Positions 1 to 64,000 are shown, numbered from the stretch's first letter. The stretch: DNA of 64,000 bases from Candidatus Zixiibacteriota bacterium (GCA_021163775.1 JAGGTI010000105.1:354-64353); one strand, 5' to 3'. Numbers and translations: made by a program. Notes: generated from the sequence alone by a model not told the origin.

Positions 1-90
1 CGGAACACCGACCTACAAAATTTTTGCGTGGTGTACGTTACAGTCCACAAACAAGTCCTTGGGGCAGACAGGGCGTCTGCCGCCCACGGA
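1..90. repeat. Direct repeat, copy 1 (possibly truncated by the window edge). Contains hairpin GGCAGAC-agggc-GTCTGCC at 63..81.
   Basis: Positions 1..59 (cggaacaccgacctacaaaatttttgcgtggtgtacgttacagtccacaaacaagtcct) recur identically at 335..393. Both copies continue into a ggggcagac...gtctgccgcccacg hairpin with small differences. Confidence 0.85.
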
Positions 91-28900: not shown

Positions 28901-29306
28901 ATCCGATCTCAATTGTATACACCACCGTATCGATTACGATGTGTGCCTGGCGATCCTTAAACTGCCAAATAAACTCATACTCACCTGAACTTTCGGGCCA
29001 GAAACAGACCGTAGTCGTGAATTCGGATCCGAACCGCTGAGGTTCGTATGTGATCGGTCCGCTTACCAGCGACATCAAAATGGAATCGGACTCGTCCGGA
29101 TCCCAAGCCGAGATGTCGTAGCAGATCGAATCAGCAACGCACCAGACGACCAGCGAGTCATCCGGCAATGTCACCGTTGGCGGACATTCGGGATCACCAA
29201 CAACCAGAGAATCAGAACCTGATTGTGCAGTGGCATTAACACCAAAAGCGATCAGCCAAACCAATGTTAACAGTACGAGATTGAGATGTGACCCTCGTCT
29301 CTTCAT
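19953..29306 (-). CDS. Giant (3117 aa) secreted Cys-rich modular surface protein with cohesin-like, dockerin-like and T9SS C-terminal sorting domains.
   Basis: Uninterrupted 9354-nt ORF with GGAGG 6 nt upstream of the ATG and signal peptide MKRRGSHLNLVLLTLVWLIAFGVNATAQ. The body is reiterated ~90-100-aa beta-rich modules with conserved Cys patterns (...LC.P..IC..., VCF.P...G.Y, TD.CG..D.). The C-terminus carries GGFDLLIGFD (cohesin-like), DVNADGLTLTVADLTLL (dockerin-like) and NYPNPFNPATTISF...GVYFYRL...KMILLK (T9SS CTD). Confidence 0.88.
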   Translation of the reverse strand: MKRRGSHLNLVLLTLVWLIAFGVNATAQSGSDSLVVGDPECPPTVTLPDDSLVVWCVADSICYDISAWDPDESDSILMSLVSGPITYEPQRFGSEFTTTVCFWPESSGEYEFIWQFKDRQAHIVIDTVVYTIEIGSIPVIEDQQFFSELCDLRTERYLSQIYSGAGSNPLFELLSGPGTIDPATGLITYQPDTSGTFVFEVSLTGICGSDTATLIDELVLNLPPHCIGFDSTIFLCDLEEICFDIFATDPEGDVIEISMLEGLGIFEQTSDTSGRTCFVPADVGYAQYVFIYRSADSCVLQLGEALSEPYCCIDTVRIDVHITQPGELTCPTDTTYDLCVPPDELPALICLDGFISTWETTTISFGTLNADTLCFEADTLGTYTIDYIGTDTCGHTDTCTTLVTVKGNNTPYVTMADDYSIDLCVPETICFAATADDLDFDIADISVNYGYFDQSSGRICFDADSSGVYVIIMTATDECGASDTDSTIVTIDLNQPPTVSLGEDQTLDLCQIEEICIDAIVTGNRINFFSTSTGAYYNEATSQVCFTPQESGTYEVFLQVEDDCDNVVADTILVNVTIGSAPTISGFADSSVYVCYPVEICLPLEISDIDGDIATITVNQGQYRDGYVCFTPYSMGNYELIVTVTDECGYQAVDTAYLDVQTDQDIELVCPGDTTVFLCEPDTLCFPIGGIPEGAEVSVDGLATYWNPVTESVCFFSDCCLENKVTVSVTTECGIYSCDFNVSVQTNSRPLVMLPTDTTIFLCDPGPICLPVGISDIDGNIAGVTVTGGTYDDYENTVCFDALEETTYIINVEVIDSCGAVVTDEMAVTIKLNVAPTVDFLPTDSVKRLCELGPISFGLEYEDLDGHELDFGWESTNGMAMLVMGIPDSTIIGVNYVPNSYGDHCITLWVTDPCGLADTTKVCFTLVQPEPVAIMCPEPTGAIMCGQGTACFDIPITGDVLQVSTSLGTWADGQLCIDAEVSLFEEVTIIADGECNSDTCTVPISIDVVEAPIVECQGNVDILLCGPDTLVLPVTLVAGSGPQEELTAVAPAWITRDAEGAWVHLPITEPGEYTVTVVYSSPPCPADTCSFTVAADFNTPPELTADNISFDLCLLESVTIPFAYYDLEDNIVDITSPDGLVTYSNGTGELQFTPDMFGEFLVTLTAVDECGEETSITINVTINELPVVEIGCPASSVFCDPGPHCIDLPIFGDATVVTPEGTTWADGQFCIDLTDLQYGTYAYTIIAEGPCNSDTCTVEVKYLAPVGVTCVVLDTTITVCSEANSTVLMPVDITGDEYTVSVIPEYPLVDSFVEVPIDTAGLYPVSIMVQNECSIDACNFVVNIDLNSAPDVSLGVDTTITLCELIEICVPYEAYDADADLLQLESLGGVITDGTICFTPDSFGDHEIIITATDPCLAMDEDTIVVSVVQGQFVTMTCPDPVMAVDVDLPDTVRVPVGVDPLDVDVTVAPYGYYDYSTGEAVIYLESEGLHQFVVTAVADCNADSCEFALEVGQYIPPYVDCIGTVDTLLCLSRPRELCLPVSVFGTDVQVEVSDGAVFTGDAVCFEVSAPGEYVIDILAYTDRDSATCQSIVTVTGGNPPILEMPEFLDYTLCGSGDVCFDVVMEDAEFDITNISLNFGNYDINTGQVCFFADTAGTYIFDMTVADSCDNETSGSTTVAIAFNEAPVVELGDDFEVFGCVFEEICVDVTITDDDDVTVYTSLGQYDPITGQVCFLPETSGTYELIVEATDLCGVTAADTVNIQVRSNTPPEMAPLRDTTVYICYPISICLDALISDPDGNLVSVETSLGTYENDQVCFVPYSMGEYEIIVTATDECGATVIDTALVTILTDQDIELVCPGDTTVFLCEPDTLCFPIGGIPEGAEVSVGGLATYWNPVTESVCFFSDCCLENKVTVSVTTQCGTYSCDFNVSVQTNSRPLVMLPTDITIMQCQFEEICLPVGIDDIDGNITSVQVDGGSYDDYANVICFTPDQSGSYTLTVTAIDSCGAVGTDEVVVDVVLNEAPIITYQPIDTLYKQCVPEEICVSIGIADVNGNIVDISVTGGHYDADLQAICILPEGFGTFCANVTVTDNCGLTATEQVCVEVIDGDYVEITCNEFPDSGPDLCQPETVCYPLVVSGDNFMVSTDFGTWENDQLCFFADTSGTYVITVIADAMCISDTCVVTVPITILEPLAVTCPEDDTQFLCGSDTLCYDFSYRPLSAEVTVSAPAYLNGGQVCVPVFEPGTQTITLTAANHCGEVQCSFDVTATFNEGPTVDAGEDVALVECDLHEICLPVYFSDADSNIRLLETSLGVLSGDTAVCFTPPDFGEYEFILTVTDECDETATDKVVLSYTEGLTASIMCPDGAQYASICDPDKVCILAPITDAETITILPGGVYKPETGEVCVYVTEGGTFPITIIAESQCGSDTCNFNLEVDMGVAPVVECPEPIDTVLCLVETDTLRLPITVSGTGLSVNVNPAGYYAAGILNLPISEPGEHIFEVIAYGSCGADTCEVTVTVTADEAPVLTLPTELTFERCPDDIDEICIDGIFATDLESDVEITQVCGPGLFSGPTLDSGAVCFVPEAFGQIEFCFEATDGCHVITGSFLVNIVTRDDCDVCVRFEIDGGGETPVGLRKRVDINVETNEAIGGFDLLIGFDVSALSFQYASMDGGVGESWEYFTWNVDDQSCGSACPSGLVRFVGIADRNNGAAHPPDSAYTPDGSLFFVEFQVANDQNLGDVFVPISFVWYDCADNAVSDTTGTLLFIDTRIYNAEHILIWDEFDDVNYPESVREDNLGAPDSCVVIGEKSQAVRCIEFINGGIKIIDPGDIDDRGDINLNNIAYEIADAVVFTNYFIHGLSAFTISIPGQIAASDVNADGLTLTVADLTLLIRVIIGDANPIPKTTPYDQVAGIHTSRDVDRIRVSAETYNGIGAAYFVYDVAPGLSFGEPQTLAAADGFTVKSGVSEGKLRILVYNIGSARIAPGLGDLVEIPVYGDGELTLTHSEIVDYQSRPYVSLIASTLPAEYNLKQNYPNPFNPATTISFALPTAATWSLKVYNITGALVWEHQGRSEGGLVDVVWDGHNLSGDAIASGVYFYRLDANNYSNTRKMILLK
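23480..23756. repeat. Intragenic near-identical repeat, copy B (within the giant gene).
   Basis: Aligns without gaps to 27047..27323, an offset of 3567 nt (1189 codons). Hand alignment gives about 18 mismatches in 277 nt, and the last ~115 nt are identical. Confidence 0.9.
27047..27323. repeat. Intragenic near-identical repeat, copy A (within the giant gene).
   Basis: Encodes DQDIELVCPGDTTVFLCEPDTLCFPIGGIPEGAEVSV...NVSVQTNSRPLVMLPTD, which occurs twice in the protein. See copy B. Confidence 0.9.
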
Positions 29307-50700: not shown

Positions 50701-53526
50701 TTATTTCTTAGCCTTCTTCTTCTTTGAAGGTGTATGCCTGATAGCCGCCTGAGCCGCAGCCAGACGGGCGATCGGTACGCGATACGGCGAACAGGAAACA
50801 TAGTTGAGACCTATCCGATGGCAGAAATCAATCGAGGCCGGATCACCACCATGCTCGCCACAAATACCAACCTTCAAATCAGGTCGAACCGAGCGACCTT
50901 TCTCGACACCCATAGTAACCAACTGCCCCACTCCCTCAATATCAAGTGAAACAAATGGATCCTTGGGCAGAATACCGGTTTCAACATAGTAATTAAGGAA
51001 CCGACCCGAGTCATCGCGCGAAAAACCCATAGTCATTTGCGTTAGATCATTGGTTCCGAAACTGAAGAATTCAGCTTCCTCAGCAATCTCATTAGCAGTA
51101 AGAGCGGCGCGCGGTACTTCAATCATAGTACCGACCGTGTAGTTCAGAACCTTGGAGCGTTTGCGGGCCGTGACCTCGCGTGCGATCCGATCCACCACTT
51201 CCTTCTGGTGCTTGAACTCGTTGACATGTCCGACCAGAGGAATCATAATTTCCGGAAAGACGTCCTTCTTCTGTCGTTGCAGATCGCTGGCCGCTTCCAA
51301 TATTGCCCGCACCTGCATTTCAGTAATTTCCGGGTAGAAAATGCCCAGACGACAGCCACGGTGTCCCAGCATCGGATTGGATTCGGCTAATTCTTCCAGC
51401 CGTCCAAGAGTCTTCTCCAACGCTTCAAGGTCTTCTTCGTAATTATCATCCTTCTTATCCAGAGCCGCAATTTTGGCTTCGACCTCGTGGTGTTTCGGAA
51501 GGAATTCATGAAGTGGCGGATCCAGGGTACGGATTGTCACAGGGTAACCCTGCATAACATCAAGCAATCCCTTGAAGTCTTTCTTCTGGAGCGGTAGCAA
51601 CTGAGCCAGTGCCTCTTGACGCTCTTCGGTGCTGTCGGCCAGAATCATTTTCTGTACGATCGGAATCCTGTCTTCTGCAAAGAACATATGTTCGGTGCGG
51701 CACAGGCCGATCCCCTCGGCGCCATATTTTACCGCCTGCTTGGCATCCCGCGGAATATCAGCATTGGCACGTACGCCCAAGGTCCGAGTTTCATCAGCCC
51801 ATTTCATCAGCTCAGCAAATTCACCCGAGAGTTCAGGTTCGATAGTATCGACCTTACCCTGAATGATATCACCTGTTGAGCCATTGAGCGTAATCGTGTC
51901 GCCTTCTTTGATCGTCAAACGACCAACCTGGAATATCTTCTTGGACACATTCACCCGTAACGCTTCGGCACCACTTACACAACACTTGCCCATACCTCTG
52001 GCAACTACGGCGGCGTGCGAAGTCATACCTCCACGTGAAGTAAGAATACCGACCGCGACATTCATGCCCTCGATATCATCCGGGCTGGTTTCCTGGCGGA
52101 CCAGAATCGTTGCATGCTTGGAACCCAGGCGAACAACATCTTCAGCCGTGAACACCACGTGACCAGTCACCGCACCTGGTGAAGCCGCAAGTCCGGTCGC
52201 GAGAACATTGTACTTCGCCTTAGGGTCAATACGAGGATGAAGCAAATGATCGAGCTGAGCCGGATCTATTCTCAGAAGCGCCTCTTCGCGAGTAATCAGC
52301 TTCTCTTTAACCATGTCGACCGCGGATTTGATAGCGGCTTGCGCCGTTCGTTTACCGGACCGGGTCTGGAGCATGAAGAGCTCGTTTTCCTGGATAGTAA
52401 ACTCGAAATCCTGTATATCACGATAGTGCCTCTCCAAGCGGTCGGTGATCTCTTTTAACTGCTTGTACACTTTGGGCATTTCACCCTTGAGCTCCACCAA
52501 AGGCTGTGGGGTACGCACACCAGCAACCACATCTTCACCCTGAGCATTGATCAAGAACTCACCATAGAATTCCCTGTCTCCAGTAGCCGGATTACGGGTA
52601 AAGCCCACACCGGTACCAGAATGTTTACCCATGTTACCGAAAACCATAGTTTGGATATTCACTGCCGTACCCAAGCCAGCCTCAATATCGTTAAGCCTGC
52701 GGTAAGTAATGGCTCGCGGATTGTTCCAACTGCGGAATACGGCATCGCGGGACATTTTGAGTTGCACCCGGGGATCGTCCGGGAACGGTTCTCCGGATTT
52801 CCGCTTAACAATCGACTTGAACTTTTTAATAATATCCTTCAGATCGACAGGCTGAAGCGAACTATCCTGACGAATACGCTTATCTTTTTTCTTCTTGGTG
52901 ATAACATCCTCAAAGAGATCCTTGTCGATACCCAGAACAACATTACCGAACATCTGTATGAACCGTCTGTAATTGTCCAGTGCAAATCGTTCGTTGCCCG
53001 TCTTCTCGCCCAAACCCTTCACGGTTTCTTCATTCAAACCAAGGTTAAGTACCGTATCCATCATACCCGGCATCGAAAATTTGGCACCAGAACGTACCGA
53101 AACAAGGAGCGGATCGGTCGGATCGCCAATCTTTTTACCAGTCACTTTTTCGAGACGTTCCAAATAGGCTTCCATCTCGGTTTCGATCGCCGCCGGCACC
53201 GCCATCCCTTCATCGTAGAATAGGTTACAGACGTCTGTCGTAATAGTAAACCCAGGCGGAACCGGTATACCAGCGTTGGTCATTTCAGCCAGACCGGCAC
53301 CTTTACCACCCAACAGGTCACGCATTTCTGAGTTACCTTCAGCCTTGCCCTTTCCGAAGAAATAGCAGGATTTCGGATATTTGACAGATTTCACTTTTGT
53401 CTTGGCCGAAGCCTTCTTTGCTTTAGCCACAGTTTTTTTGGTCTTAGTCTTGTTAGTTGTTTTTGCTCCCACGCTGGTCTTCCTGCCTGCTTTCGCTTTT
53501 GTCTTCTTCGCCTTCTTTGCTGGCAT
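50701..53526 (-). CDS. ppdK: Pyruvate, phosphate dikinase, with an unusual Lys-rich N-terminal extension.
   Basis: 941 aa with LLGGKGAGLAEM, catalytic His loop GGMTSHAAVVARGMGKCCV, and the C-terminal PEP-utilising barrel GICGEHGGDPAS. The first ~45 aa are K/A/T-rich. Confidence 0.93.
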   Translation of the reverse strand: MPAKKAKKTKAKAGRKTSVGAKTTNKTKTKKTVAKAKKASAKTKVKSVKYPKSCYFFGKGKAEGNSEMRDLLGGKGAGLAEMTNAGIPVPPGFTITTDVCNLFYDEGMAVPAAIETEMEAYLERLEKVTGKKIGDPTDPLLVSVRSGAKFSMPGMMDTVLNLGLNEETVKGLGEKTGNERFALDNYRRFIQMFGNVVLGIDKDLFEDVITKKKKDKRIRQDSSLQPVDLKDIIKKFKSIVKRKSGEPFPDDPRVQLKMSRDAVFRSWNNPRAITYRRLNDIEAGLGTAVNIQTMVFGNMGKHSGTGVGFTRNPATGDREFYGEFLINAQGEDVVAGVRTPQPLVELKGEMPKVYKQLKEITDRLERHYRDIQDFEFTIQENELFMLQTRSGKRTAQAAIKSAVDMVKEKLITREEALLRIDPAQLDHLLHPRIDPKAKYNVLATGLAASPGAVTGHVVFTAEDVVRLGSKHATILVRQETSPDDIEGMNVAVGILTSRGGMTSHAAVVARGMGKCCVSGAEALRVNVSKKIFQVGRLTIKEGDTITLNGSTGDIIQGKVDTIEPELSGEFAELMKWADETRTLGVRANADIPRDAKQAVKYGAEGIGLCRTEHMFFAEDRIPIVQKMILADSTEERQEALAQLLPLQKKDFKGLLDVMQGYPVTIRTLDPPLHEFLPKHHEVEAKIAALDKKDDNYEEDLEALEKTLGRLEELAESNPMLGHRGCRLGIFYPEITEMQVRAILEAASDLQRQKKDVFPEIMIPLVGHVNEFKHQKEVVDRIAREVTARKRSKVLNYTVGTMIEVPRAALTANEIAEEAEFFSFGTNDLTQMTMGFSRDDSGRFLNYYVETGILPKDPFVSLDIEGVGQLVTMGVEKGRSVRPDLKVGICGEHGGDPASIDFCHRIGLNYVSCSPYRVPIARLAAAQAAIRHTPSKKKKAKK

Positions 53527-53616
53527 AATAATGCCCCCTATACCTATATTGGATTGGAGCTACTTTTCTCTTTCTATCGAATGATAAAGTAAACGGCTTA
53601 ACTCCTGAAACGCAAT

Positions 53617-53656
53617 AAAAAAGGGTAGTTAAGAACCCAACCGCCCTCAACTACCC
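53617..53656 (-). terminator. Terminator candidate after the small basic-protein gene.
   Basis: An 8-bp stem, GGGTAGTT (53623..53630) paired with AACTACCC (53649..53656), has an 18-nt loop. On the minus strand it is followed by UUUUUU. Confidence 0.5.
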
Positions 53657-53688
53657 AGACTTATAATTGCCGCCCAGACCTACCAGAC

Positions 53689-54036
53689 TCACATAGTAAA
53701 CAGGCGTTCGCCCTTAATAATTTTCTCCAACATTTTCAGGGTCTTTTCGACCGGAGAATGCATGAGGTCGTTGGTGTTAAATGTTGAACGAACCACCTCA
53801 CGCGAGGCAATCATATTGGATTTACCGTGCCCTATCCGAGCTTTTTTCTTGTGCGTCAAATTGTACTGACGCTGATACTCCTTGGCCTTCTCCTTGTGCG
53901 TCTGGTAGTACCGCCGCTGGTATTCCCGGCGAGCCTCAGCGGTACCCAACTTAGACTCGGGCTGAGGGGGGGGATCCTTCTTGGCAACGGCCTTCTTTTT
54001 CCCTGCCGTTTCTGACTTTTTGGTTCGAGCCATCAA
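53689..54036 (-). CDS. Small basic protein of unknown function.
   Basis: 115 aa with the Lys-rich N-terminus MMARTKKSETAGKKKAVAKK and an Arg/Tyr/Gln-rich helical middle. It has its own flanking terminator candidates. Confidence 0.45.
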   Translation of the reverse strand: MMARTKKSETAGKKKAVAKKDPPPQPESKLGTAEARREYQRRYYQTHKEKAKEYQRQYNLTHKKKARIGHGKSNMIASREVVRSTFNTNDLMHSPVEKTLKMLEKIIKGERLFTM

Positions 54037-54398
54037 ACCACCTCACTTTCCCTGTGTTTCGTCTTGCTACCCTATAAAACAACTATGGCACAATCGACGG
54101 TTCCTTCCACAAGCAACCTTAGGAAATATTTACCTGTATGTCAAGCGAAATTTGTTGTTGCGCTCATTTTTTTATTGATATCTACCTATGGCCTAACAGG
54201 TTAACATGCACAAAAAAGATGACGCGCCACAACCACTTGCGAGACATTCAATTACACGACACAATAATTGACACTTAAGGATATATTGTCCGGATTAGTT
54301 GTACCTCAAGCTATGAAAAATCGAGAGCGAGCCGATTGGTTCCATCTTATTATACAAACAGAAGTACTTTAGGATCAATAGAAATTTGCGCACCGCAC

Positions 54399-54440
54399 AA
54401 AAAAAACCAAAAGAAAAAGCCCGCCTCTTATGAGACGAGC
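54399..54440 (-). terminator. Rho-independent terminator closing the membrane-module array.
   Basis: On the minus-strand RNA this reads GCUCGUCUC-auaa-GAGGCGGGC (two G-U pairs) followed by UUUUUCUUUUGGUUUUUUUU. It lies 35 nt after the stop at 54476. Confidence 0.75.
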
Positions 54441-54475
54441 TTTTCTAAAACAGAGTAGTTCAAACTCTCATGCTA

Positions 54476-55303
54476 CTATTGCGGCGAAGTGACGTCTTTA
54501 GAAGTCACGTGACGGTAGATTTCAATAATCGTATAACCAACCACCACTGCTATTAGCAAATAGAAGAAGAACGGGAAACCCCAATGATACGCTTCGTTGG
54601 GTGTATCCCCCAGATCCAGAGCCGCCACTATCCATTGTTGATCGAGGTACTGCATCCGGTTGATAAACAATGATATTCGCGCCATCACAGTAAAACCGAA
54701 TGATGCGCCAAAACCGATCATCAGGATCCAGATACCGAACTTAGCCATGCCACCAAACACACCGGTATGCGCCTTGGAAAAGAAGAAATAGATCAAGGCA
54801 CAAAGCGTACCGACAAAGACCAGCAGTTGAGACAAACCGGACGTGGCATCGAGAAGATTGAAGCCACCGTGACCGAAGAAATCTGACCAGTTGATCGGTG
54901 CCATCATCGCCACCAATTGTTCGTTCACACGGGCTTTCATCTCAAGTGGCACCGCGGCACCGGCACCGATACCGATATACATTGCCAGAGGCCAGCGCGA
55001 GATCCAGGAATAATTCTTGGAGAACCTGGTCCACATCAACATACCCAGAATGGCCGGCAACAGATACCAGGGAGCGCTGGAATCAAGATATAGGAACCAG
55101 GGACTGCCATCATCCAAACGATCATACATCAGTTTCGGAATCATACCGTTGTGCCATAGAATGATCGTGAAATAGCCGGCGGCGGCGCCCACAACCAAAT
55201 GCTCGGCAAACTTGTAGAACGGATTATCCTTGTAAAGAAATGAGAACGTACACAGCGTCAGGAAAGCGGCAAACGTCGTCCAGAGAAAAGTCGTAAAATC
55301 CAT
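54476..55303 (-). CDS. Module subunit B, paralogue 3 (polytopic membrane protein, unknown family).
   Basis: 275 aa. Shares the motifs SFLYKDNPFYKFAE, RWPLA, LIYFFFSKAHTGVFG and GIWILMIGFGASFGFTVMARISL with 58619..59452 and 62297..62938. It has an extra ~45-aa C-terminal extension with one more TM helix. Confidence 0.8.
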   Translation of the reverse strand: MDFTTFLWTTFAAFLTLCTFSFLYKDNPFYKFAEHLVVGAAAGYFTIILWHNGMIPKLMYDRLDDGSPWFLYLDSSAPWYLLPAILGMLMWTRFSKNYSWISRWPLAMYIGIGAGAAVPLEMKARVNEQLVAMMAPINWSDFFGHGGFNLLDATSGLSQLLVFVGTLCALIYFFFSKAHTGVFGGMAKFGIWILMIGFGASFGFTVMARISLFINRMQYLDQQWIVAALDLGDTPNEAYHWGFPFFFYLLIAVVVGYTIIEIYRHVTSKDVTSPQ

Positions 55304-55305
55304 GA

Positions 55306-56190
55306 CTATCTCCCTTCCCGTTGCATACGTTTCTTTTGTCGTCGATTCATGAAATACCCCACGTTGCCAATAATCACAAAGCCAATAATCACCAAGTGAG
55401 CGGCCAACTGTATTCGCATGGAATCTTTGGCATTACCCGGATTGTCGGCTAACTCTTCGTATTCAGCCGCACCAAGCATACCGCCCATGATACCGAATAT
55501 CTGTCCTGACCCAAGATACGGATAGTACTGAGCGGTCGAAACCCCGGTCACACCAATTGCCAGCGGGAAATTAAACCTGCCCTGAGCGTAGGAAATCCAG
55601 TAGTCAGTTGAGTTGGTGCCGGAGATATTAACCGCCCCGGCGATATCATCAAAGTTGTTAACACCCTGCATCATTGGCAGTGAATCCAGCGGTACGCCGT
55701 AATAGTCGAGCGGGAACGGCAGACGGAAATTCTGCCCCATAGCCAACATAACCATCGAAGGATATGGTTTGTAACCTAAGAAACAGTAGTCGATACCGTT
55801 GATAATTTCGCGTGGCGGGTAAGTGACACCGTTGTAGGTCTTCTCCACCAGCATCGAATCGGCAATATCACGCAATGCCTGATCGGCCATGCCCGGCCCG
55901 TTCTGCGACAGGGCAGTCATAAGCACTTTCAGTTCCTTGCGCCAACATTGCTCGACAATGGCCCAGGTCATCGGATGCAACTCCGCCATTGAACCTGGAT
56001 CATAGTCAAGAGGTATGAACATTATCGCACCTTTAGGCAGGGTGTCGATAAAGTTGAAGATCGACCGCACTTCCGGTTCTACGATAATTGGAACTTCGAA
56101 TGGCACGATGTAGGCTATGACGCACACAACGATGAGAAATAGGAAGACCCAGCGCCGATCAAGCGACATCATTTTATCAAAAATATTCAT
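55306..56190 (-). CDS. Module subunit A, paralogue 3 (N- and C-terminal TM anchors flanking a ~230-aa extracytoplasmic domain).
   Basis: 294 aa. Shares the motifs DYDPGSMAELHPM, GIMGGMLGAAEYE and AHLVIIGFVIIGNV plus a basic tail with 59449..60393 and 62956..63981. Confidence 0.8.
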   Translation of the reverse strand: MNIFDKMMSLDRRWVFLFLIVVCVIAYIVPFEVPIIVEPEVRSIFNFIDTLPKGAIMFIPLDYDPGSMAELHPMTWAIVEQCWRKELKVLMTALSQNGPGMADQALRDIADSMLVEKTYNGVTYPPREIINGIDYCFLGYKPYPSMVMLAMGQNFRLPFPLDYYGVPLDSLPMMQGVNNFDDIAGAVNISGTNSTDYWISYAQGRFNFPLAIGVTGVSTAQYYPYLGSGQIFGIMGGMLGAAEYEELADNPGNAKDSMRIQLAAHLVIIGFVIIGNVGYFMNRRQKKRMQREGR

Positions 56191-56205
56191 AATCGGTCTT
56201 CCTTT

Positions 56206-57015
56206 CTAACCCATATACTTTCGTTCAATGCCCAGGATCACTTTCAACCCGGTGGCTACAATCCCCAACCCAACCCCCATAACGATAGCTCTCTGAGCGG
56301 CCAGGTTGGGCACGTTCATAAGCCAGCTGGAGGTTTGCGAGATGTAACTGCCAAAAACCGGTTCCAGGTAGGGGTTGAAACGTAACATTACAATAATCGC
56401 CGACAGGAGCAGAAGCGTCGCCATGATGCTCCGCGCTCGGAAAGCGCGATAAGCGGCCGACGCAATGAAGAAAGCCAACAGCGAAAACATGGTGGCGAAG
56501 ATTGGAATCAGGATGAAGTCAAACGAGTGGACGAACATGTAGGCCTGCAACCCCTCGGACGTGGCGAAATGAAAACTGAAGGCTTTGTCGAAGATACCTA
56601 TCAACAGCGCAGTCAGGGCAAACACCCCCGCCAGTCCGGCAAACATTGCTACTTTCGCGCGTGAGGCCATCGCCTGAATGATCATCAGAAACATACCTAC
56701 CACCGACAACACGAAAGGGAAATACCAGCCCCATTCGGCACCGTTTCTAATCGTGAACCCAAAGACGATAAAGCCAACCAGACCGGCCAGAGTAACATAC
56801 GAGTATTGCCAGCCTATTTTCTTGTTCTTGATCTTATCCACGTGCACTCTTATCAGCGACCAGATACCGATTGCAAGGGCAAAGATACCAATGATGATGA
56901 TCCAGTCGAGAAGGTACTCGTAGAGCCACTCGGATTTTTCGTGCGGCATAAAAAACTGGAACAGCAGAAAGGCGCCGAAGACAAGAACCAGTAATCTTGG
57001 AAATTGTTGTTTCAT
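56206..57015 (-). CDS. Module subunit D, paralogue 2 (polytopic membrane protein, unknown family).
   Basis: 269 aa. Shares RVHVDK, LLAFFIASAAYRAFRA, PNLAAQRAIVMGVGLG and ILGIERKYMG with 60359..61030. Confidence 0.8.
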   Translation of the reverse strand: MKQQFPRLLVLVFGAFLLFQFFMPHEKSEWLYEYLLDWIIIIGIFALAIGIWSLIRVHVDKIKNKKIGWQYSYVTLAGLVGFIVFGFTIRNGAEWGWYFPFVLSVVGMFLMIIQAMASRAKVAMFAGLAGVFALTALLIGIFDKAFSFHFATSEGLQAYMFVHSFDFILIPIFATMFSLLAFFIASAAYRAFRARSIMATLLLLSAIIVMLRFNPYLEPVFGSYISQTSSWLMNVPNLAAQRAIVMGVGLGIVATGLKVILGIERKYMG

Positions 57016-57028
57016 TCTCTGCTATCTC

Positions 57029-58591
57029 CTAACCCGACACATGGAAAGCCTCGGCAAAACCGGGCCACCCGAACGCCGTTGTGAGCATACCCACAATAGC
57101 AATAATCACAATCGCCGCTTTAGCCCAATCCTGAGCTTTGAGCGAACCAAGTAGAATCGGCTCACGTCCCAGGTAGGCGGAGGCGGCGTATAACTCTTCA
57201 CCAATAAGCGTGTAATCACACGCCACGATGAAAAACGGAATCTGGGCAATTTCATCGGTGCCAGCGATCTGGATTGATCCGGCCAACGCGCCAGTCTCTG
57301 CCAAAAGCAGTGACTCGGCAAAAAACTTACCCATATATATATTGGTGGCTGGCAGTTCGCGAAGCATGGTTCCGTTCACCGCGGCCACGTAGGCAAACTG
57401 CAGATTGGTAACAAAGTGAACCGCATCTTCATCGTAATCATCCGGACGACCAGCGTCCAGATAAGATGATTTTACCACTTCCTGAGCTACGGCCATAACG
57501 ATCGGATCATAACACGGAACAATGATCGGCGTTTGATACTCGGCCACTTTCTTTGCCACTCGACCCAATATGGTAAACGACGCGATAGTTGCCACCATAT
57601 CGGCAGAACCCAGCCCAAGAACGTACAAGATGGGACGTCCCATTTCGGTAGCACGACCTATGGCATCATCGACAGCCTCAATACCGGCTAATGGTCGGAC
57701 ATACAACTCCTTGCCCTTCTTGGCCACCTGAACAAACAACACCGTGAGTACAAAGAATACCAGCACGAAGATCAGGACCGGAATCTTGCCAGTGTGAAAC
57801 CACTGACCTGAACTATGCACCGGACCAACTAGGATCGCTTCGGAGCGTAGCGTAGTATCAGCGGACACCGCTTCTACCCGGTAATACAAATCAGTGTAGT
57901 CGGGGAAGAAATCAGGCGCAGTGAAATCCTTGGATCCGGAGTTCTCATAGCTGGTGTTGCCAGCCACAACCGCTCCAAGGTATTCCCAGTCTCCGTCGTT
58001 CGGATACTGGTTGTGAGCCTCGGGTAATTGCGCGAGTGCTTCCTCAAATCGAATCTGGAGCGGTTCCAAACCGTCCTTGATTTCCGGCAACCGGGCGGTC
58101 ATCACAGCAATCGTGTCCTGCAGAGCCGTGATAGCATAGTCGGTGGTCAGCACAAACGCACTGTCGTCTGCCGGAATCGATACTTCAAACCGAATCGACT
58201 CAAGCTTGCCGGGGTCTTCCCGCAGTTCATTAAGCGCATGTTCAGCTCTGGGGATATCCGACCGGAACGCCCGCATAGTCGATCGAGCGTTGGACCGCTC
58301 ACCACGCAGTGAGTCAACTTGATCCATCAAAGATGGGAACCAGCGGAATATCTGGTACGACAGGACATTATTCTGTCCCTTACCATCATCGACAGAAAGA
58401 TCCCAAGTCAAAGTTATAGAATGACCGTGATCGTTATCGGTATCGACCGCCTGCAAGTTGGTGACCGGAGCCGGTGGTGGCTGAACCGGGGTAACACCCG
58501 CCGAGTCAACCAAAACCGAATCGGTTTGCGCCAGAGCCGTTGCGCCGACGCATAGCGACAGCACAGCAACAAAAGTAATAATACTTCTCAT
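57029..58591 (-). CDS. Module subunit C, paralogue 2 (signal peptide, FN3-like ectodomain with insertion, TM helix, conserved ~240-aa C-terminal core).
   Basis: 520 aa. Contains AGIEAVDDAIGRATEMGRPILY, YVAAVNG, FFAESLLLAETG and PFFIVACDYTLIGEELYAASAYL, shared with 61035..62318. Confidence 0.8.
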   Translation of the reverse strand: MRSIITFVAVLSLCVGATALAQTDSVLVDSAGVTPVQPPPAPVTNLQAVDTDNDHGHSITLTWDLSVDDGKGQNNVLSYQIFRWFPSLMDQVDSLRGERSNARSTMRAFRSDIPRAEHALNELREDPGKLESIRFEVSIPADDSAFVLTTDYAITALQDTIAVMTARLPEIKDGLEPLQIRFEEALAQLPEAHNQYPNDGDWEYLGAVVAGNTSYENSGSKDFTAPDFFPDYTDLYYRVEAVSADTTLRSEAILVGPVHSSGQWFHTGKIPVLIFVLVFFVLTVLFVQVAKKGKELYVRPLAGIEAVDDAIGRATEMGRPILYVLGLGSADMVATIASFTILGRVAKKVAEYQTPIIVPCYDPIVMAVAQEVVKSSYLDAGRPDDYDEDAVHFVTNLQFAYVAAVNGTMLRELPATNIYMGKFFAESLLLAETGALAGSIQIAGTDEIAQIPFFIVACDYTLIGEELYAASAYLGREPILLGSLKAQDWAKAAIVIIAIVGMLTTAFGWPGFAEAFHVSG

Positions 58592-58618
58592 ATGGCAACC
58601 TTTACCAAAGAGGAAAAA

Positions 58619-59452
58619 CTAACTAATTATTCCTAACCAATCTTTAAACAGAAATGTCAGACGCCCCACCAGGAGAGAAATACGACCCATTACGGTGTAA
58701 CCAAACGAAGCGCCAAATGTAATCATCAATATCCAAATACCGACCCGAGAAGCCTTACCAAACAGACCGGTGTGTTCTTTTGAGAAGAAAAAATAGATCA
58801 ACCCGCAGACAACCCCAAGGAAAATGACCAAATTGGAAAACATCGCAACAAATTGACCGTCAGCGGCGAGTGAGAAGTTGGCAAAGAAATGGCCGAAGCC
58901 ATGCCAATCAACCAGAAGCGGCACAAAAGTAGAAGAAATCTGGCTCATGAAATCTGACCGCAGGTAACGAACCAGATTCAGCCCGGCAAAAGTGCCGACG
59001 ATAAACGCCAGCGGCCAGCGTGACAACCAGCCTACTTTGGGCACCAGACGGAACAGGAGGAAGGCTCCCAGAATGATCGGGATGAAATACAACAGAGGAT
59101 ACGGCAGGGTCAGGAAACCAAAATCAAGTTCGCCGCCCAAATAAGGCACTCCAAACGCCTCCGAAAGTCCCTCGGATAAGCGTGGTACCAAATTACCGAC
59201 AATAGTTGACCAAAAGCCGACACACATCCAGTAAGCCGCCGACACGCCGACGAACAAGTGCTCCGCAAATTTGTAATACGCGTTGTCCTTATACATAAAG
59301 GACATAATTGCCAGCGTCAGGAACGAGGCCAGTGTCACAAGAAAAGCGTCTTGGATCGCATTGTCGCCGTCGATAGTACCCGCCTTGAGTACCCAACTCA
59401 GAACAAAGATGAGACACACCACCGCAAATACGATCAAACTGGTTCGCTTCAT
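58619..59452 (-). CDS. Module subunit B, paralogue 2.
   Basis: 277 aa with the family B motifs (SFMYKDNAYYKFAE, RWPLAFIVG, LIYFFFSKEHTGLFG). It has an extra N-terminal TM helix and an ATGA overlap with the preceding A gene. Confidence 0.8.
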   Translation of the reverse strand: MKRTSLIVFAVVCLIFVLSWVLKAGTIDGDNAIQDAFLVTLASFLTLAIMSFMYKDNAYYKFAEHLFVGVSAAYWMCVGFWSTIVGNLVPRLSEGLSEAFGVPYLGGELDFGFLTLPYPLLYFIPIILGAFLLFRLVPKVGWLSRWPLAFIVGTFAGLNLVRYLRSDFMSQISSTFVPLLVDWHGFGHFFANFSLAADGQFVAMFSNLVIFLGVVCGLIYFFFSKEHTGLFGKASRVGIWILMITFGASFGYTVMGRISLLVGRLTFLFKDWLGIIS

Positions 59453-60393
59453 GACTGGCCTTCCTTCCTCCGGGCCAGGAAGAACAAGACATTGCCTATC
59501 ACGATAAACGCCATAATAACGATGTGAGCTACTGTCTGCGGACCCATCATAACCATCGCCGGCGTCGGCATGTCGCGGTACTGCTCATAGTTGTCGCGGA
59601 AGTGGCTTTCATATTCGGACGCGCCTTTGACGCCACCAAGCAGACCAACCAGTTGGCGCGGATAGTAGGGGTACAACTGCGGTGCCACCACAGCCGCCAC
59701 TCCGGCCCCTATCGGAACGCCGGTCGGATCACCCACAAACAGCACCCATTCTTTCAGACCGGGACGGCCGCCACCCAGCGAGATTATCAGATCAAAGTCC
59801 CCACAGGAGCGAACCCCTCGGAGAATCGGAATGCTGTCAAACGGAATCGAGTTGGCATCAGTAGGGAACATTTTCTTGAAATCGGTGCGGATAACGTTGA
59901 GCACGCCCTCGTTCCCTGCCTTGTAACCCATGTTGACCCAGTCGACACCTTCCACCAGGTTAGGAAAATCAGTTTTAATTACGTCATTCATGGTGATATT
60001 AAACTGCGCCTGCCCGGTAGCCCAGAGAGTCATGCAAATCGCTTGATGTTTTTTGGCAAGCACATGGCGCGTGATCACATCAGCCATCGGCTGTACTTCG
60101 GGTGACATCGGCGGATCAAAATCAAATGACAGTAGTACTCGTGATCCCTCGGGGAGTTCATCAATGGCATCGAAAAGCGCTCTCACGATCGGCGTCGGTT
60201 TTGCCTTAAACGTCACGGGCATAAGCAGTGGCGCCGCCACCGAAACCAGAATAAAGGCAAAGATCACCCTGCGATCTACTTCCTGGCCTTTCAGGGCACG
60301 AAGCAACAGCCAGACAAGACCTGCGGCAATAAGCGCCAGAACGATTATGGGACCGATATTACCCACTGTCTTTACCCAGGTAAGTGCGTTCAA
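59449..60393 (-). CDS. Module subunit A, paralogue 2.
   Basis: 314 aa with the family A motifs (FDFDPPMSPEVQPM, GLLGGVKGASEYE, AHIVIMAFIVIGNV plus RRKEGQS). Overlaps the upstream D gene by 35 nt. Confidence 0.8.
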   Translation of the reverse strand: MNALTWVKTVGNIGPIIVLALIAAGLVWLLLRALKGQEVDRRVIFAFILVSVAAPLLMPVTFKAKPTPIVRALFDAIDELPEGSRVLLSFDFDPPMSPEVQPMADVITRHVLAKKHQAICMTLWATGQAQFNITMNDVIKTDFPNLVEGVDWVNMGYKAGNEGVLNVIRTDFKKMFPTDANSIPFDSIPILRGVRSCGDFDLIISLGGGRPGLKEWVLFVGDPTGVPIGAGVAAVVAPQLYPYYPRQLVGLLGGVKGASEYESHFRDNYEQYRDMPTPAMVMMGPQTVAHIVIMAFIVIGNVLFFLARRKEGQS

Positions 60394-61030
60394 TACCCAG
60401 AATTAACCGTAGCGACATAGACACCACGCCGAGTCCAATGCCAATCATGATAGCACGCTGTCCCGCAAGATTTGGTGAACTCATAATCCAGACCGCTAAG
60501 TTGGGAATCTCCAGAATAGACATTCCTTCCGGCATCCAATTGGTGAGCATCTGGCCAATCGGCGTACTACCAAGTAGGATAATGAAAGCGGCGATGAGCA
60601 ATACGGTCGCTTCGCGATTCTTGGCCCGAAAAGCTCGATAAGAAGCCGAAGCTACAAAAAACGCCAACAGGGCGTACATGGTACTCCCCAGCGGAAGATG
60701 CACATTGTAATAGAGAGTTGAGAACAGGCCTTCGCGGGTGATATCCGAAGTTATACTCTCGGCGCCGATCTTGCCCAATCCAGCCACTAACATAACAAGG
60801 AATCCGACCAAGGTGACAATCGAGAAACCCCAATCTTTCTTGCGCTTGATAAGCTTGTCAATATGAACACGCATCAGGTTGCCGCCACCTAAGAAAAAGG
60901 CAAAGACAGCAATAATATCAAAAAACAGCGTGAAGTCTTCACCCAACGGCTCAAATGGCGGACTGAAAAATGACAGAATCGCCAGGAAACCGACAGAAAT
61001 TGTTATGATGAGGGGTATTTCTCGTCTCAT
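60359..61030 (-). CDS. Module subunit D, paralogue 1.
   Basis: 223 aa with the family D motifs (RVHIDK, LLAFFVASASYRAFRA, PNLAGQRAIMIGIGLG, ILGIERTYLG). Confidence 0.8.
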   Translation of the reverse strand: MRREIPLIITISVGFLAILSFFSPPFEPLGEDFTLFFDIIAVFAFFLGGGNLMRVHIDKLIKRKKDWGFSIVTLVGFLVMLVAGLGKIGAESITSDITREGLFSTLYYNVHLPLGSTMYALLAFFVASASYRAFRAKNREATVLLIAAFIILLGSTPIGQMLTNWMPEGMSILEIPNLAVWIMSSPNLAGQRAIMIGIGLGVVSMSLRLILGIERTYLGKDSG

Positions 61031-61034
61031 GCTG

Positions 61035-62318
61035 TCAATCCGTTACGACAAACCAACTCCTGATCAATTCCGTAGCACTGCTCATCCACTCCGCGCCAGT
61101 GAGGGTCGCAAGCGTGGTCAACGTCACACCAATAATGATCGCCGCCATAGCAATCCCTTTGCCCACATCCTGACCCTTGAGAGATCCTAACGCCTTGGGC
61201 TCATCCGAAAGATAGGCCGAGGCCGCAAACAGTTCTTCACCGATCAAGGTGAAATCACAGGCGGCAATAAAGAACGGCAATTGCGCCGGTCGTGCTGTCC
61301 CGGCAATCTGAATAGCGCCAACCGAGTTGCCCGTTTCGGCTAAGATCAATGATTCGGCAAAGAACGCACCTAAGAGAAAAACCGTCGCCGGCTTTTCACG
61401 CACCATAATACCATTAACCGCCGCCACATACCCAAACTGTTCGTCGGTAATATAACTGACCATGTCGTCGGTGTAAGCATCCGGCCGACCTGCGGTCTGA
61501 TATCCGGCTTTGATCGTCTCACGTGCCGCGGTCATCACCAACGAACGCGCTACCGGCATGCGGATTTTAATATCGTAATTGGCCACTTGCTCGGCCACGT
61601 GTCCCAATATCGTCAATGAAGCCAGCGTCTGGACATCATCCATATCATTAATACCGGGGATATACAGAATCGGGCGGCCCATTTCGGTCGCACGTCCGAT
61701 AGCCTCGTCAACAGCTTCCAGCCCGGCGATCTTCCGTACAAACAGCTTGCGGCCCTTTGTAGCCGTCTTGATGAAAACCATCACCGCCCCACAGACCACT
61801 ATGGTCATAACCATCAGATTCAACCAGTTCCACTTCAGCCACTCCTGTTCCGGGGTGATGGCCGCCGTGACGACCGATTGGGCCGAGGCGTCTTCAGCTA
61901 AAGCTAACACATAGAATTGATACGAGCTGTCACGATGGAGTTCCTCGACCCTGAAAGTTGAGACTTCTGGTAATAGTTCGGCAATACGGTGGGGTTCCCC
62001 GTTGTTACATATCTGATATACTTCATATGCGGTCACCCGACCGGTTACAGGGATATCATCGATTGATGGTACCCAGGTAAGCATAAGTTTGTCGCCATCA
62101 TCGTATTTGAAATCCTGAGCCAGCAGTGATGTCACCGGTGCCAGCGGCGTTGTCGCCGTGGTATCGACAACTTCGGTTTCACCCTGAGCCAGAGATGCGG
62201 AGTTAGTCAGGAATAGAAAAAAGAAAACAAGTGGGATCAACAAACAAGAACACAGGACCGGCGGTCTCGCGCCCGTTGTCGATCGGCGGGGTGACACTAT
62301 TGAATCAGCCCTAACCAA
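61035..62318 (-). CDS. Module subunit C, paralogue 1.
   Basis: 427 aa with a signal-like N-terminus, an FN3-like ectodomain (VTSLLAQDFKYDDGDKLMLTWVPS...TAYEVYQ...YQFYVLA), a TM helix and the conserved core AGLEAVDEAIGRATEMGRPILY. An alternative GTG start at 62297 overlaps the B1 stop as TAGTG. Confidence 0.8.
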   Translation of the reverse strand: MVRADSIVSPRRSTTGARPPVLCSCLLIPLVFFFLFLTNSASLAQGETEVVDTTATTPLAPVTSLLAQDFKYDDGDKLMLTWVPSIDDIPVTGRVTAYEVYQICNNGEPHRIAELLPEVSTFRVEELHRDSSYQFYVLALAEDASAQSVVTAAITPEQEWLKWNWLNLMVMTIVVCGAVMVFIKTATKGRKLFVRKIAGLEAVDEAIGRATEMGRPILYIPGINDMDDVQTLASLTILGHVAEQVANYDIKIRMPVARSLVMTAARETIKAGYQTAGRPDAYTDDMVSYITDEQFGYVAAVNGIMVREKPATVFLLGAFFAESLILAETGNSVGAIQIAGTARPAQLPFFIAACDFTLIGEELFAASAYLSDEPKALGSLKGQDVGKGIAMAAIIIGVTLTTLATLTGAEWMSSATELIRSWFVVTD

Positions 62319-62938
62319 TCCCGGAAGATAAAGTCAACGCGCCCAATCAACAGCGACATACGACTCATGACAGTGTAGCCGAACATCGCTCCGAAAGTAA
62401 TCATCAGGCCCCAGATACCTACACGAGCCGTAGCTCCAAAGGCACCCTTATGTTCCTTGGAGAAGAAGAAATAAATCAGGCCGGTAAAAGTTCCGACAAT
62501 AATGATCAAGTTACCTATAATTTCGCCAAACGACGCCCCGAAGCCCTCACCGAACAGTGGCATTATGGTTGATTGCACCTGCGACATGGCATTCGATGTT
62601 AGGTAGTTCATCATCCACAGACCGGAAGTAGCTCCGACGATGAAAGCCAGAGGCCATCGAGCAATCCATCCGATTTTGGGAACCAATCGCATCAGCATCA
62701 TCAGCCCAAGTATGGCTCCGATCCAGAGCATAGGCTCTTCTCCACGACCCACCCAGAACTTGCCGTAAAAATTATCGAAGAAAAGTACCACAACCCAATA
62801 ACCAGCTGAAATACCGATAAACACAGCTTCAGTAAACTTATACCAGGGATTATCCCTATAAAGGAATGAGTAAATTCCCAAGGTTAGAAAGGCGGCTACC
62901 CAAACTCCAAAATGTCCCCAAAAGGTAAGGTGTTCCAT
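62297..62938 (-). CDS. Module subunit B, paralogue 1.
   Basis: 213 aa, the shortest B, with the family B motifs (SFLYRDNPWYKFTE, RWPLAFIVG, LIYFFFSKEHKGAFG). Confidence 0.8.
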   Translation of the reverse strand: MEHLTFWGHFGVWVAAFLTLGIYSFLYRDNPWYKFTEAVFIGISAGYWVVVLFFDNFYGKFWVGRGEEPMLWIGAILGLMMLMRLVPKIGWIARWPLAFIVGATSGLWMMNYLTSNAMSQVQSTIMPLFGEGFGASFGEIIGNLIIIVGTFTGLIYFFFSKEHKGAFGATARVGIWGLMITFGAMFGYTVMSRMSLLIGRVDFIFRDWLGLIQ

Positions 62939-62955
62939 TCTTTGCCTACTCCAAC

Positions 62956-63981
62956 CTACTCACCCTTGAGCTTTGACTTGCGGCCGCCCCGGAAGTACGC
63001 GACGTTACCGATAATAATGAACGCGATCACAATAACATGGGCAAAAGACTGCGATAACATAAACAGCGTAGCCTTGCCCTTCAAGTTGGTCAGTTTCTCT
63101 ATCTCCGCCGCGCCGCTCATGCCGCCCATCAGTCCAACCAGCTGACCGGGTTTTTCCAAAGTACCCATGTAAGGATAAACTGTGGGAGCCTGCACCGCCG
63201 TATTACCAGCACCCAATTTTATTCCAAACCGATCAACCCCCACCTGAACCCATTCGACAGTACCGGGAAAACCGGCAGACAGATTAACCGAATAATCTAT
63301 ATTAGAAAAGTTTTTAACATTCTTAATAATGGGTAAATCCTGGTAAGGTGTCCCGCGAAAATCTGATTTGAACATAGACTCAAAACTGGAGCCCATCCGT
63401 TGGATAACAAACTCCCCGCCCGCCTGGTAGCCCAAGTTGACAAAGTCTTCTCCGTAGACAACATCCTGCTCAGTTAAACCCATCCGAGACATTACGCTAT
63501 CTAACGCCATTGTCGCCTGTTGCGGTCCCATCGGCCAAAGCCCCAGGACAATCATATCTAAATCGCGCTCGATACACTCACCAAGGATAGCTTCGGCCAT
63601 CGGTTGTAACTCTGGAGCCGAGGCCGGATCATAGTCAAAAGAAATCAGAACTTTAGAACCAGGCTGGAGATCCACAAGACCTTGATAGACCCCGCGCACC
63701 TCATCGGAAACCTTGATAGGCTGATCAATAGACATAAATAGCGGCAACGACAGCGCTACGCCGATATAAAGGAAGACTATTCGGCGACCAACCAGCTTGT
63801 CTTGCAAAGTACGAATAAGTATCCACACCAGCGACAATGCCAGCAAAATCATGATAACGAGCGATACCGATGACGAGAAAACAAAACCATGATGCCAACC
63901 GTTAATTTTACCAACATAGGCCCAGACTGAAGAAATAACCAGCAGAGCTAAAACAATCATTTCAATTGTTCGAGTTTTCAT
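62956..63981 (-). CDS. Module subunit A, paralogue 1.
   Basis: 341 aa with the family A motifs (FDYDPASAPELQPM, GLMGGMSGAAEIE, AHVIVIAFIIIGNV plus a basic tail). It has extra N-terminal TM helices, and GGAGG lies 9 nt upstream of the ATG. Confidence 0.8.
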   Translation of the reverse strand: MKTRTIEMIVLALLVISSVWAYVGKINGWHHGFVFSSSVSLVIMILLALSLVWILIRTLQDKLVGRRIVFLYIGVALSLPLFMSIDQPIKVSDEVRGVYQGLVDLQPGSKVLISFDYDPASAPELQPMAEAILGECIERDLDMIVLGLWPMGPQQATMALDSVMSRMGLTEQDVVYGEDFVNLGYQAGGEFVIQRMGSSFESMFKSDFRGTPYQDLPIIKNVKNFSNIDYSVNLSAGFPGTVEWVQVGVDRFGIKLGAGNTAVQAPTVYPYMGTLEKPGQLVGLMGGMSGAAEIEKLTNLKGKATLFMLSQSFAHVIVIAFIIIGNVAYFRGGRKSKLKGE

Positions 63982-64000
63982 AACTTAATCGCCTCCACCC

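Follow-up and report, generated by a model that had tools for sequence, protein, structure and literature searches.

This report concerns a repeated set of four membrane-protein genes, C-D-A-B, found at one end of a stretch of 64,000 nucleotides from a Candidatus Zixiibacteriota bacterium (GCA_021163775.1, JAGGTI010000105.1:354-64353); this whole stretch is called the window here. Ten intact open reading frames (ORFs) on the minus strand fill positions 54476-63981 in the order A1-B1-C1-D1-A2-B2-C2-D2-A3-B3, where the letters denote protein families. The four families are co-inherited in fixed order in at least a dozen phyla. A sequence-only reading of the window had described ten tightly packed minus-strand genes of only four protein families, closed by a strong terminator, and all of this was confirmed. 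Every ORF lies where that reading had placed it, with gaps of -35 to +27 nt if each ORF is taken at its greatest length, and BLASTP comparison among the ten proteins gave exactly four families, with matches within families only. The array is closed by an intrinsic terminator at 54414-54445, consisting of a 14-bp stem and a T run (read from 54445 to 54414 on the minus strand). According to the gene calls of an overlapping contig, the gaps are about -8 to +27 nt, including a 1-nt overlap between the stop codon of B1 and the start of C1.

All genes are given here with their positions on the minus strand. Unit I is represented in the window by A1 (341 amino acids [aa], 62956-63981) and the polytopic membrane protein B1 (213 aa, 62297-62938). 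Unit II consists of C1 (427 aa from a TTG start, 61035-62318), D1 (223 aa with about six transmembrane [TM] helices, 60359-61030), A2 (314 aa from a TTG start, 59449-60393), and B2 (277 aa, 58619-59452). Unit III consists of C2 (520 aa, 57029-58591), D2 (269 aa, 56206-57015), A3 (294 aa, 55306-56190), which is a minimal form with a single N-terminal TM helix, and B3 (275 aa, 54476-55303), the final gene of the array. The start of C1 is more likely at 62297, which gives a protein of 420 aa and a 1-nt overlap with the B1 stop codon, and the gene caller starts A2 at 60366, which gives 305 aa.

By BLASTP, the A proteins are 28-36% identical to each other (E-values of 6e-40 to 3e-68) and the B proteins 39-48% (1e-45 to 3e-68); C1 and C2 share 49% identity over their core (2e-84), and D1 and D2 share 32% (4e-36). 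Between families, the best E-value among the ten proteins was only 0.18, and hhalign comparison of cross-phylum profiles found B and D, as well as A and C, to be unrelated. Divergence between paralogues is highest in family A and lowest in the core of C. The short motif islands quoted in the sequence-only reading proved to be invariant columns in the cross-phylum alignments. The GC content of the array is that of the remaining window.

The window ends within the array. A JGI contig (L001) that differs from window positions 52956-64000 by 3 mismatches in 11,045 bp (99.97% identity) runs 2,520 bp further, and the added sequence contains, immediately upstream of A1, the genes for C0 (421 aa) and D0 (215 aa). 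Identity is 46-50% between C0 and C1 or C2, and 31-48% between D0 and D1 or D2. Both genes had been predicted beyond position 64000, and the extension completes the first unit. The array thus comprises three complete C-D-A-B units, or twelve genes.

We scanned one genome per GTDB species with an alignment of family C and obtained 80 loci, from Zixibacteria, Planctomycetota, Acidobacteriota, Gemmatimonadota, WOR-3, Cloacimonadota, Fermentibacteria, Aegiribacteria, Coatesbacteria, Eisenbacteria, Marinimicrobia, and others. The planctomycetal hosts include metagenome-assembled genomes (MAGs) assigned to the genera Gimesia, Singulisphaera, and Planctomicrobium. D, A, and B were detected with hidden Markov models (HMMs) built from the window's own proteins, and only C genes with at least 3 kb of downstream sequence were counted. 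Of 103 genome cases, 100 have D, A, and B after C on the same strand, as do 39 of 40 independent metagenome loci, which makes 139 of 143. Independent occurrence of the families, which the earlier reading had named as a sign that there is no module, is therefore not what we found. One of the four exceptions to the order is a locus (L067:1299-3331) with F-C-D, F being an upstream family described below, in which no A or B was detected in 9 kb downstream. Most phyla have one unit and Zixibacteria have two to four. Within Zixibacteria the unit order I-II-III is kept and the best match of every gene is to the same unit of the window. Because unit order is conserved and best matches are unit-wise, the sequences indicate that whole units were duplicated and that the duplication is old.

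Family C is the best defined of the four. C1 matches Pfam PF20539 (DUF6754) with 408 bits (E-value of 1.2e-122) and C2 with 384 bits (3.3e-115), both covering HMM positions 2-255 of 257 against a gathering score of 27 bits, and C0 is also a member of PF20539. The sequence-only reading had matched none of its families to a known one; this held for A, B, and D and failed for C, although PF20539 is itself uncharacterised: its Pfam entry has neither function nor structure, and we found no literature on DUF6754. C1 has a signal peptide, an FN3 domain (about residues 56-150, 61869-62153), a TM helix, the DUF6754 core (residues 157-408, 61095-61850), and a C-terminal TM helix; the core of C2 lies at 57050-57808. 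An AlphaFold2 (AF2) model of C1 built with 46 homologues resolved the signal peptide region, the FN3 domain, the TM helix, and the C-terminal helices. In this model the FN3 domain is a seven-strand sandwich with a predicted local distance difference test (pLDDT) score above 90. The profile of family C matches the FN3 domains of titin and neogenin (E-values of 6e-32 to 1e-4), the sole matches in PDB profile searches with A, B, C, and D. A single C sequence reaches 18.8 bits against Pfam FN3, below the 25-bit cut-off. In C2, the alignment shows an insertion of about 100 aa in the FN3 domain.

The DUF6754 core has about 55 invariant columns across phyla and is the best-conserved part of the whole module. 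E322, E328, D355, E361, and E362 are conserved and sit in hydrophobic stretches of C. At 50% identity the core forms 2,060 clusters, in which it is nearly always C-terminal, behind ectodomains of 60-750 aa that include six FN3 repeats and propeller-like repeats. The top homologues of C are from Zixibacteria, and no homologue of the core was found in plasmid and phage collections. An orphan C-like protein is encoded on a complete Zixibacteria chromosome (CP070824; L035:10010-12397), where D, A, and B are not adjacent. In this protein the DUF6754 core is fused to a C-terminal S49 peptidase of the SppA/NfeD type, which follows the last TM helix and so agrees with a periplasmic C-terminus.

A1 is an exact match to the Zixibacteria MAG protein J7J98_08480 at NCBI. 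Its three N-terminal TM helices are followed by a Rossmann-like domain that is predicted to be periplasmic (residues 93-298, 63088-63705) and by a C-terminal TM helix, which ends in a basic tail. The AF2 model of A1, built with 122 homologues, has a pLDDT of 92.3 and a predicted template modelling score of 0.87, and its ectodomain is a six-stranded, Rossmann-like alpha/beta/alpha fold. Seven columns are invariant across phyla (D116, P119, E124, P127, G152, G184, and G259), and based on the alignment and the modelled secondary structure, the conserved residues fall in loops that follow beta-strands. Such loops form the usual ligand crevice of Rossmann-like folds. The model thus suggests that the beta-sheet of A has a conserved crevice along its C-terminal edge. 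Q311, H315, and N326 are conserved in the C-terminal TM helix. Comparison of the model with the PDB by Foldseek gave nothing below an E-value of 1e-3, the best being 2.6e-3, and the TM-scores were at most 0.30 when normalised to the query and at most 0.44 when normalised to the target. Non-specific matches included G-protein-coupled receptor fusion constructs that bear a glycogen-synthase domain. We considered whether the ectodomain resembles a GT-B glycosyltransferase and rejected this, as the matches were to generic Rossmann or GT-B half-domains with TM-scores below 0.5 and the domain is predicted to be periplasmic. No Pfam or NCBIfam model matched A, neither with the single proteins nor with 44 cross-phylum members scanned singly.

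The same scans with single B and D proteins and with 35 B and 33 D cross-phylum members found no family for either, and A, B, and D have no relative among PDB sequences. Few polar residues within the TM helices of B and D are conserved. Some unit-III D proteins contain an inserted FG-GAP/VCBS propeller (E-value of 4e-28; L013:15223-17004 and L016:14929-16713), which indicates that D too can display a large extracytoplasmic domain. Several known membrane complexes were tried as relatives and rejected. For stators of the MotA/TolQ/ExbB type, no PF01618 match was seen in the 35 B and 33 D proteins at E-values up to 1, and hhalign gave a probability of 0.2% for B and D against Escherichia coli TolQ. 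For TolR/ExbD, no PF02472 match was seen in the 44 A proteins, and the hhalign probability against E. coli TolR was 0.6%. For Rnf/Nqr, the probability against the E. coli proteins was at most 0.3% for D with RsxA and for B with RsxE. Permease families such as ABC, MFS, and RND were not consistently matched in A-D in the Pfam and NCBIfam scans. Taken over Pfam, NCBIfam, PDB, Foldseek of A, and hhalign, the match of all four families to a characterised complex that the sequence-only reading had named as counting against it did not appear.

Around C-D-A-B there is a larger operon, of which the module forms just the membrane half. Clustering of the flanking ORFs gave the full gene order (H)-G-E-F-C-D-A-B. 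Most lineages have E, F, and G ahead of the four families, and E and F lie directly upstream of the array, or divergent from it, in about 37 of the 80 genome loci. E, of about 620 aa, matches Pfam PF13941 ('MutL protein', a GlmL-like ASKHA ATPase) over its full length with 426-432 bits (E-value of 1e-127). The ASKHA motifs ATDCGSTTTKA, GVDIGGATTDVFSV, and SGGVLSHAP are conserved in 80 sequences and cover the phosphate- and adenosine-binding sites. Against the NCBIfam GlmL equivalog, E scored 233-238 bits with a cut-off of 475, and against TIGR01319 it scored 163-178 with a cut-off of 204. As E falls below the equivalog cut-offs and has no adjacent mutase genes, its sequence places it in a distinct subfamily of the GlmL/MutL family. 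F is a soluble protein of about 380 aa with a weak N-terminal match to the RnfC_N/NqrA_N barrel-sandwich (Pfam E-value of 4.5e-4) and a weak C-terminal NusG/Spt5 KOW match. PDB sequence and profile searches with E and F gave a weak KOW match for F only, and an hhalign comparison of F with RsxC, made when Rnf/Nqr was considered and rejected, aligned only 40 residues of the barrel-sandwich hairpin, at a probability of 6.8%. G is a small protein that precedes E in 17 genome loci from five phyla, and in seven loci G is itself preceded by H, a protein with two TM helices that weakly matches the PH domain. No ABC ATPase was found among the recurring neighbours that were scanned, namely E, F, G, H, and the lineage-specific flanking genes.

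A reverse search from F in metagenome contigs gave a similar picture. C directly follows F in 41 of the 61 loci with room for it, and in 4 the array is divergent. Among about 50 loci that could be assessed on both sides of F, C-D-A-B is missing in only about 5, so that the module is found in about 90%, and the orphan E-F loci are almost all Zixibacteria-like. E belongs to the family of accessory proteins of B12-dependent mutases. A link to B12 or to a riboswitch, which the GlmL similarity had brought up, was rejected, as Rfam gave no match in the regions ahead of the operon in 14 loci or in the 1 kb that precedes C0. A cobalamin riboswitch at L061:19530-19759 (96 bits) lies 6 kb downstream of a module, behind convergent genes, and was judged unrelated.

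Genes for Tol-Pal or ExbB-ExbD proteins lie near this operon in several lineages. Eight Zixibacteria loci (L119, L134, L148, L150, L157, L160, L007, and L032) have a complete operon with the order E-F-TolQ-TolR-(TolA)-TolB-Pal-CpoB, and in five of them (L150, L157, L160, L007, and L032) the C-D-A-B array is divergent from this E-F-Tol-Pal operon. The assignments are based on BLASTP against E. coli proteins, with E-values down to 1e-32 for TolQ, 1e-51 for TolB, and 1e-39 for Pal; TolA is a TolA-sized ORF. In Gimesia-like Planctomycetota (L073, L089, L093, L097, and L105; at about 4.5-7.5 kb in each locus), a TolQ/ExbB homologue, two TolR/ExbD homologues, and an ORF of about 270 aa are encoded directly upstream of G-E-F-C-D-A-B on the same strand. 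Genes for ExbB and two ExbD proteins are located about 3 kb downstream of B in WOR-3, Fermentibacteria, and Aegiribacteria. That three different arrangements occur in about four lineages argues for a functional link over inherited synteny. Other neighbours are specific to lineages. In five Eisenbacteria-like loci (L017, L018, L023, L044, and L045), E and F are absent beside C-D-A-B, and the flanking genes encode an M28 peptidase carrying a PA domain on the upstream side and an alpha/beta hydrolase on the downstream side; in L063 and L075, genes for ExbBD and for a TonB-dependent receptor lie downstream of the module.

No E, F, G, or Tol genes were found in the window itself. At the far end of contig L001 (positions 1-84, minus strand), 535 bp upstream of C0, lies the N-terminus of an IS30-like transposase (MGKKYNQLTIEERCEIARLRSSGCSLRK); this fragment marks the end of the contig and lies some 2.4-2.5 kb past position 64000 of the window. 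Since related Zixibacteria have the divergent E-F-Tol-Pal operon at that position, an insertion sequence (IS) element may have inserted between the C-D-A-B array and that operon. On the other side, directly downstream of the array, a Lys/Arg-rich ORF of 115 aa (53689-54036, minus strand) has no Pfam match, keeps this place in 8 Zixibacteria loci, and has a terminator of its own, with a 14-bp stem, at 53656-53623. It is followed by pyruvate phosphate dikinase (50701-53526, minus strand) with a Lys-rich N-terminal extension of about 50 aa; in 16 related loci this gene also comes after the array, apparently through synteny within Zixibacteria. Elsewhere in the window, at 19953-29306 on the minus strand, a protein of 3,117 aa carries PKD repeats together with the C-terminal sorting domain of type IX secretion, and because of this domain the organism probably has a type IX secretion system.

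We propose that C-D-A-B is the inner-membrane part of an undescribed, ATP-coupled envelope system that works with the Tol/Exb motors, a proposal for which we see the chances as about evenly balanced. Based on hydropathy and the positive-inside rule, with which the AF2 models are consistent, the Rossmann-like domain of A and the FN3 domain of C are predicted to face the periplasm, and the DUF6754 core would lie in the membrane or at its cytoplasmic face, between the two TM helices of C. One copy each of C, D, A, and B may form a hetero-oligomeric inner-membrane complex per unit, with the DUF6754 core turned to the cytoplasm as the element for docking E and F and for transduction. ATP turnover by E would then power a cycle of conformational changes, relayed by the membrane subunits to the periplasmic domains. 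Such a system would act beside the proton-driven Tol-Pal or ExbBD motors in a process that extends from the inner membrane to the outer layers. Envelope components may be tethered, trafficked, or remodelled in this way, and a nutrient-specific pathway seems less likely. In Zixibacteria, one E-F set would be common to three or four specialised membrane units. The alignments show a pattern of variable outside and constant inside, as the units differ most in their predicted periplasmic parts and the core stays constant. The fuller claim, that this is a new class of envelope machine in which a GlmL-type ASKHA ATPase, whose fold is not known to power any other membrane machine, drives a four-subunit complex of uncharacterised families that works with Tol-Pal or ExbBD on the outer layers of diderm cells, with units that were duplicated and specialised in Zixibacteria, is more tentative, and we think it somewhat more likely to be wrong than right.

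Several observations weigh against this proposal. In about half of the genome loci, the window included, C-D-A-B has no E or F within 10 kb, so coupling cannot rest on operon structure everywhere. To our knowledge, proteins of the GlmL family are known only as accessories of B12-dependent mutases and not as ATPases of membrane machines. The DUF6754 core, to which we assign the coupling, has a pLDDT of only 30-50 in the AF2 model and no confident fold. Tol/Exb genes are adjacent in about 24 of 160 loci, which reduce to about four lineages, and the significance of this adjacency relies on a rough estimated background of about 2% per 20-kb window. The lineage-specific neighbours, finally, would fit an uptake system equally well. 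A novel solute importer or exporter could be built from the same parts if B, D, and the C core form the path, A is a tethered substrate binder, E gives ATP energy or phosphorylates the cargo (ASKHA kinases phosphorylate substrates), and the three units serve different substrates. The crevice of A would suit such a role, as would the fact that A is the most divergent family between units; one E-F set for several membrane units resembles the shared energising module of the ECF transporters, and the receptor with ExbBD in L063 and L075 and the peptidases that flank the module in one lineage point the same way. However, no catabolic genes or regulators are consistently linked, the 14 upstream regions have no riboswitch, the neighbours shared across phyla are envelope genes (Tol-Pal) and not metabolic ones, few polar residues are conserved in the TM helices of D and B, and we know of no transporter with an ASKHA ATPase. 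We therefore consider a solute transporter unlikely.

A positioning or scaffold system, comparable to MreB-MreCD or FtsA, would make E an actin-fold, membrane-associated organiser and C-D-A-B the membrane anchors, whose FN3 or propeller domains would keep Tol-Pal or other periplasmic partners at sites of division or growth, with no transport or mechanical work involved. E has the actin/Hsp70 fold, it shares an operon with TolQRAB-Pal-CpoB in Zixibacteria, and the FN3, FG-GAP, and propeller-like repeats seen as ectodomains are modules for protein interaction. In E. coli, TolQRAB-Pal-CpoB acts in division-linked envelope constriction. GlmL-type ASKHA proteins are, on the other hand, not known to us to polymerise, Pfam shows no homology to MreC/D, RodZ, or PilN/O, and the conservation of charged residues in the DUF6754 core, with its roughly 55 invariant columns, looks catalytic or mechanistic, so that we find a pure scaffold a little less likely still. 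The system could instead be an ion-motive-force device, a stator or an ion translocator in its own right, in which the five carboxylates of the C core and the Q311, H315, and N326 side chains of A line an ion path and E and F are regulators. Its inventory of a soluble barrel-sandwich protein, a bitopic periplasmic protein, and two six-TM subunits of about 200 aa is like that of Rnf/Nqr, but the hhalign comparisons with RsxA, RsxC, RsxE, TolQ, and TolR were negative, conserved Cys residues and cofactor motifs are absent, and B and D are mutually unrelated, unlike NqrD and NqrE; we regard it as improbable. The transposase fragment upstream of C0 could suggest that there is no functional unit, and that the array arose when unrelated membrane genes were duplicated in tandem within one lineage, or that it is a mobile or defence island. 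The order kept in 139 of 143 cases and in more than ten phyla, the unit-wise orthology, the intact genes, the GC content equal to that of the window, and the lack of homologues in the plasmid and phage collections argue against this, and we consider it effectively refuted.

In the sequence and structure comparisons made here, the system matches no characterised one. Searches of the literature on PF13941, on GlmL as an ASKHA or actin-like protein, on Tol-Pal with an ASKHA protein, and on Tol-Pal in Zixibacteria found nothing. Seven co-inherited families, six of them without a characterised relative, form a conserved operon, and the phyla that carry it (Zixibacteria, Planctomycetota, Acidobacteriota, Gemmatimonadota, WOR-3, Marinimicrobia, and others) are dominant in sediments, soils, and oceans. 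If the proposal of an ATP-coupled machine allied to Tol-Pal or ExbBD is right, an ASKHA ATPase would represent a new energy-coupling principle in envelope biology; the machine might explain how outer layers are maintained or trafficked in poorly studied diderm lineages, and several large families of unknown function would gain roles. As homologues are present in MAGs of genera with cultivated members (Gimesia, Singulisphaera, and Planctomicrobium), the question is directly testable.

It is useful to compare the system with those that are known. The Pfam entry PF20539, of which C0, C1, and C2 are full-length members, omits the obligatory D-A-B partners and the E/F/G neighbours. Rnf/Nqr offers a superficially parallel inventory, and the N-terminal barrel-sandwich of F is like that of RnfC/NqrA, but the flavin or Fe-S motifs of those complexes are absent here, and B and D are not paralogues. 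ECF transporters follow a similar logic, given that one E-F(-G) set serves three or four units in Zixibacteria; this is an organisational analogy only, as homology is absent and the present system contains neither an ABC ATPase nor EcfT. With the GlmL/MutL accessory proteins of glutamate and ornithine mutases, E shares the full-length PF13941 domain and the ASKHA motifs, whereas E has additional N- and C-terminal regions and its neighbours are membrane or Tol-Pal genes, never mutase genes. MreB-MreC-MreD, FtsA, and PilM-PilN-PilO likewise place a cytoplasmic ASKHA protein beside bitopic or polytopic inner-membrane proteins with periplasmic domains; E differs from their ASKHA members in belonging to the GlmL/MutL branch, and A-D match no MreC/D or PilN/O model. 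Tol-Pal and ExbB-ExbD-TonB, which are proton-driven trans-envelope motors, also serve diderm bacteria as envelope machines that combine polytopic and bitopic subunits in the inner membrane with parts that span the periplasm, and they are genomic neighbours of the present system in Zixibacteria, Gimesia-like Planctomycetota, WOR-3, and Fermentibacteria/Aegiribacteria. Whereas those machines have no cytoplasmic ASKHA ATPase, the present system is accompanied by E.

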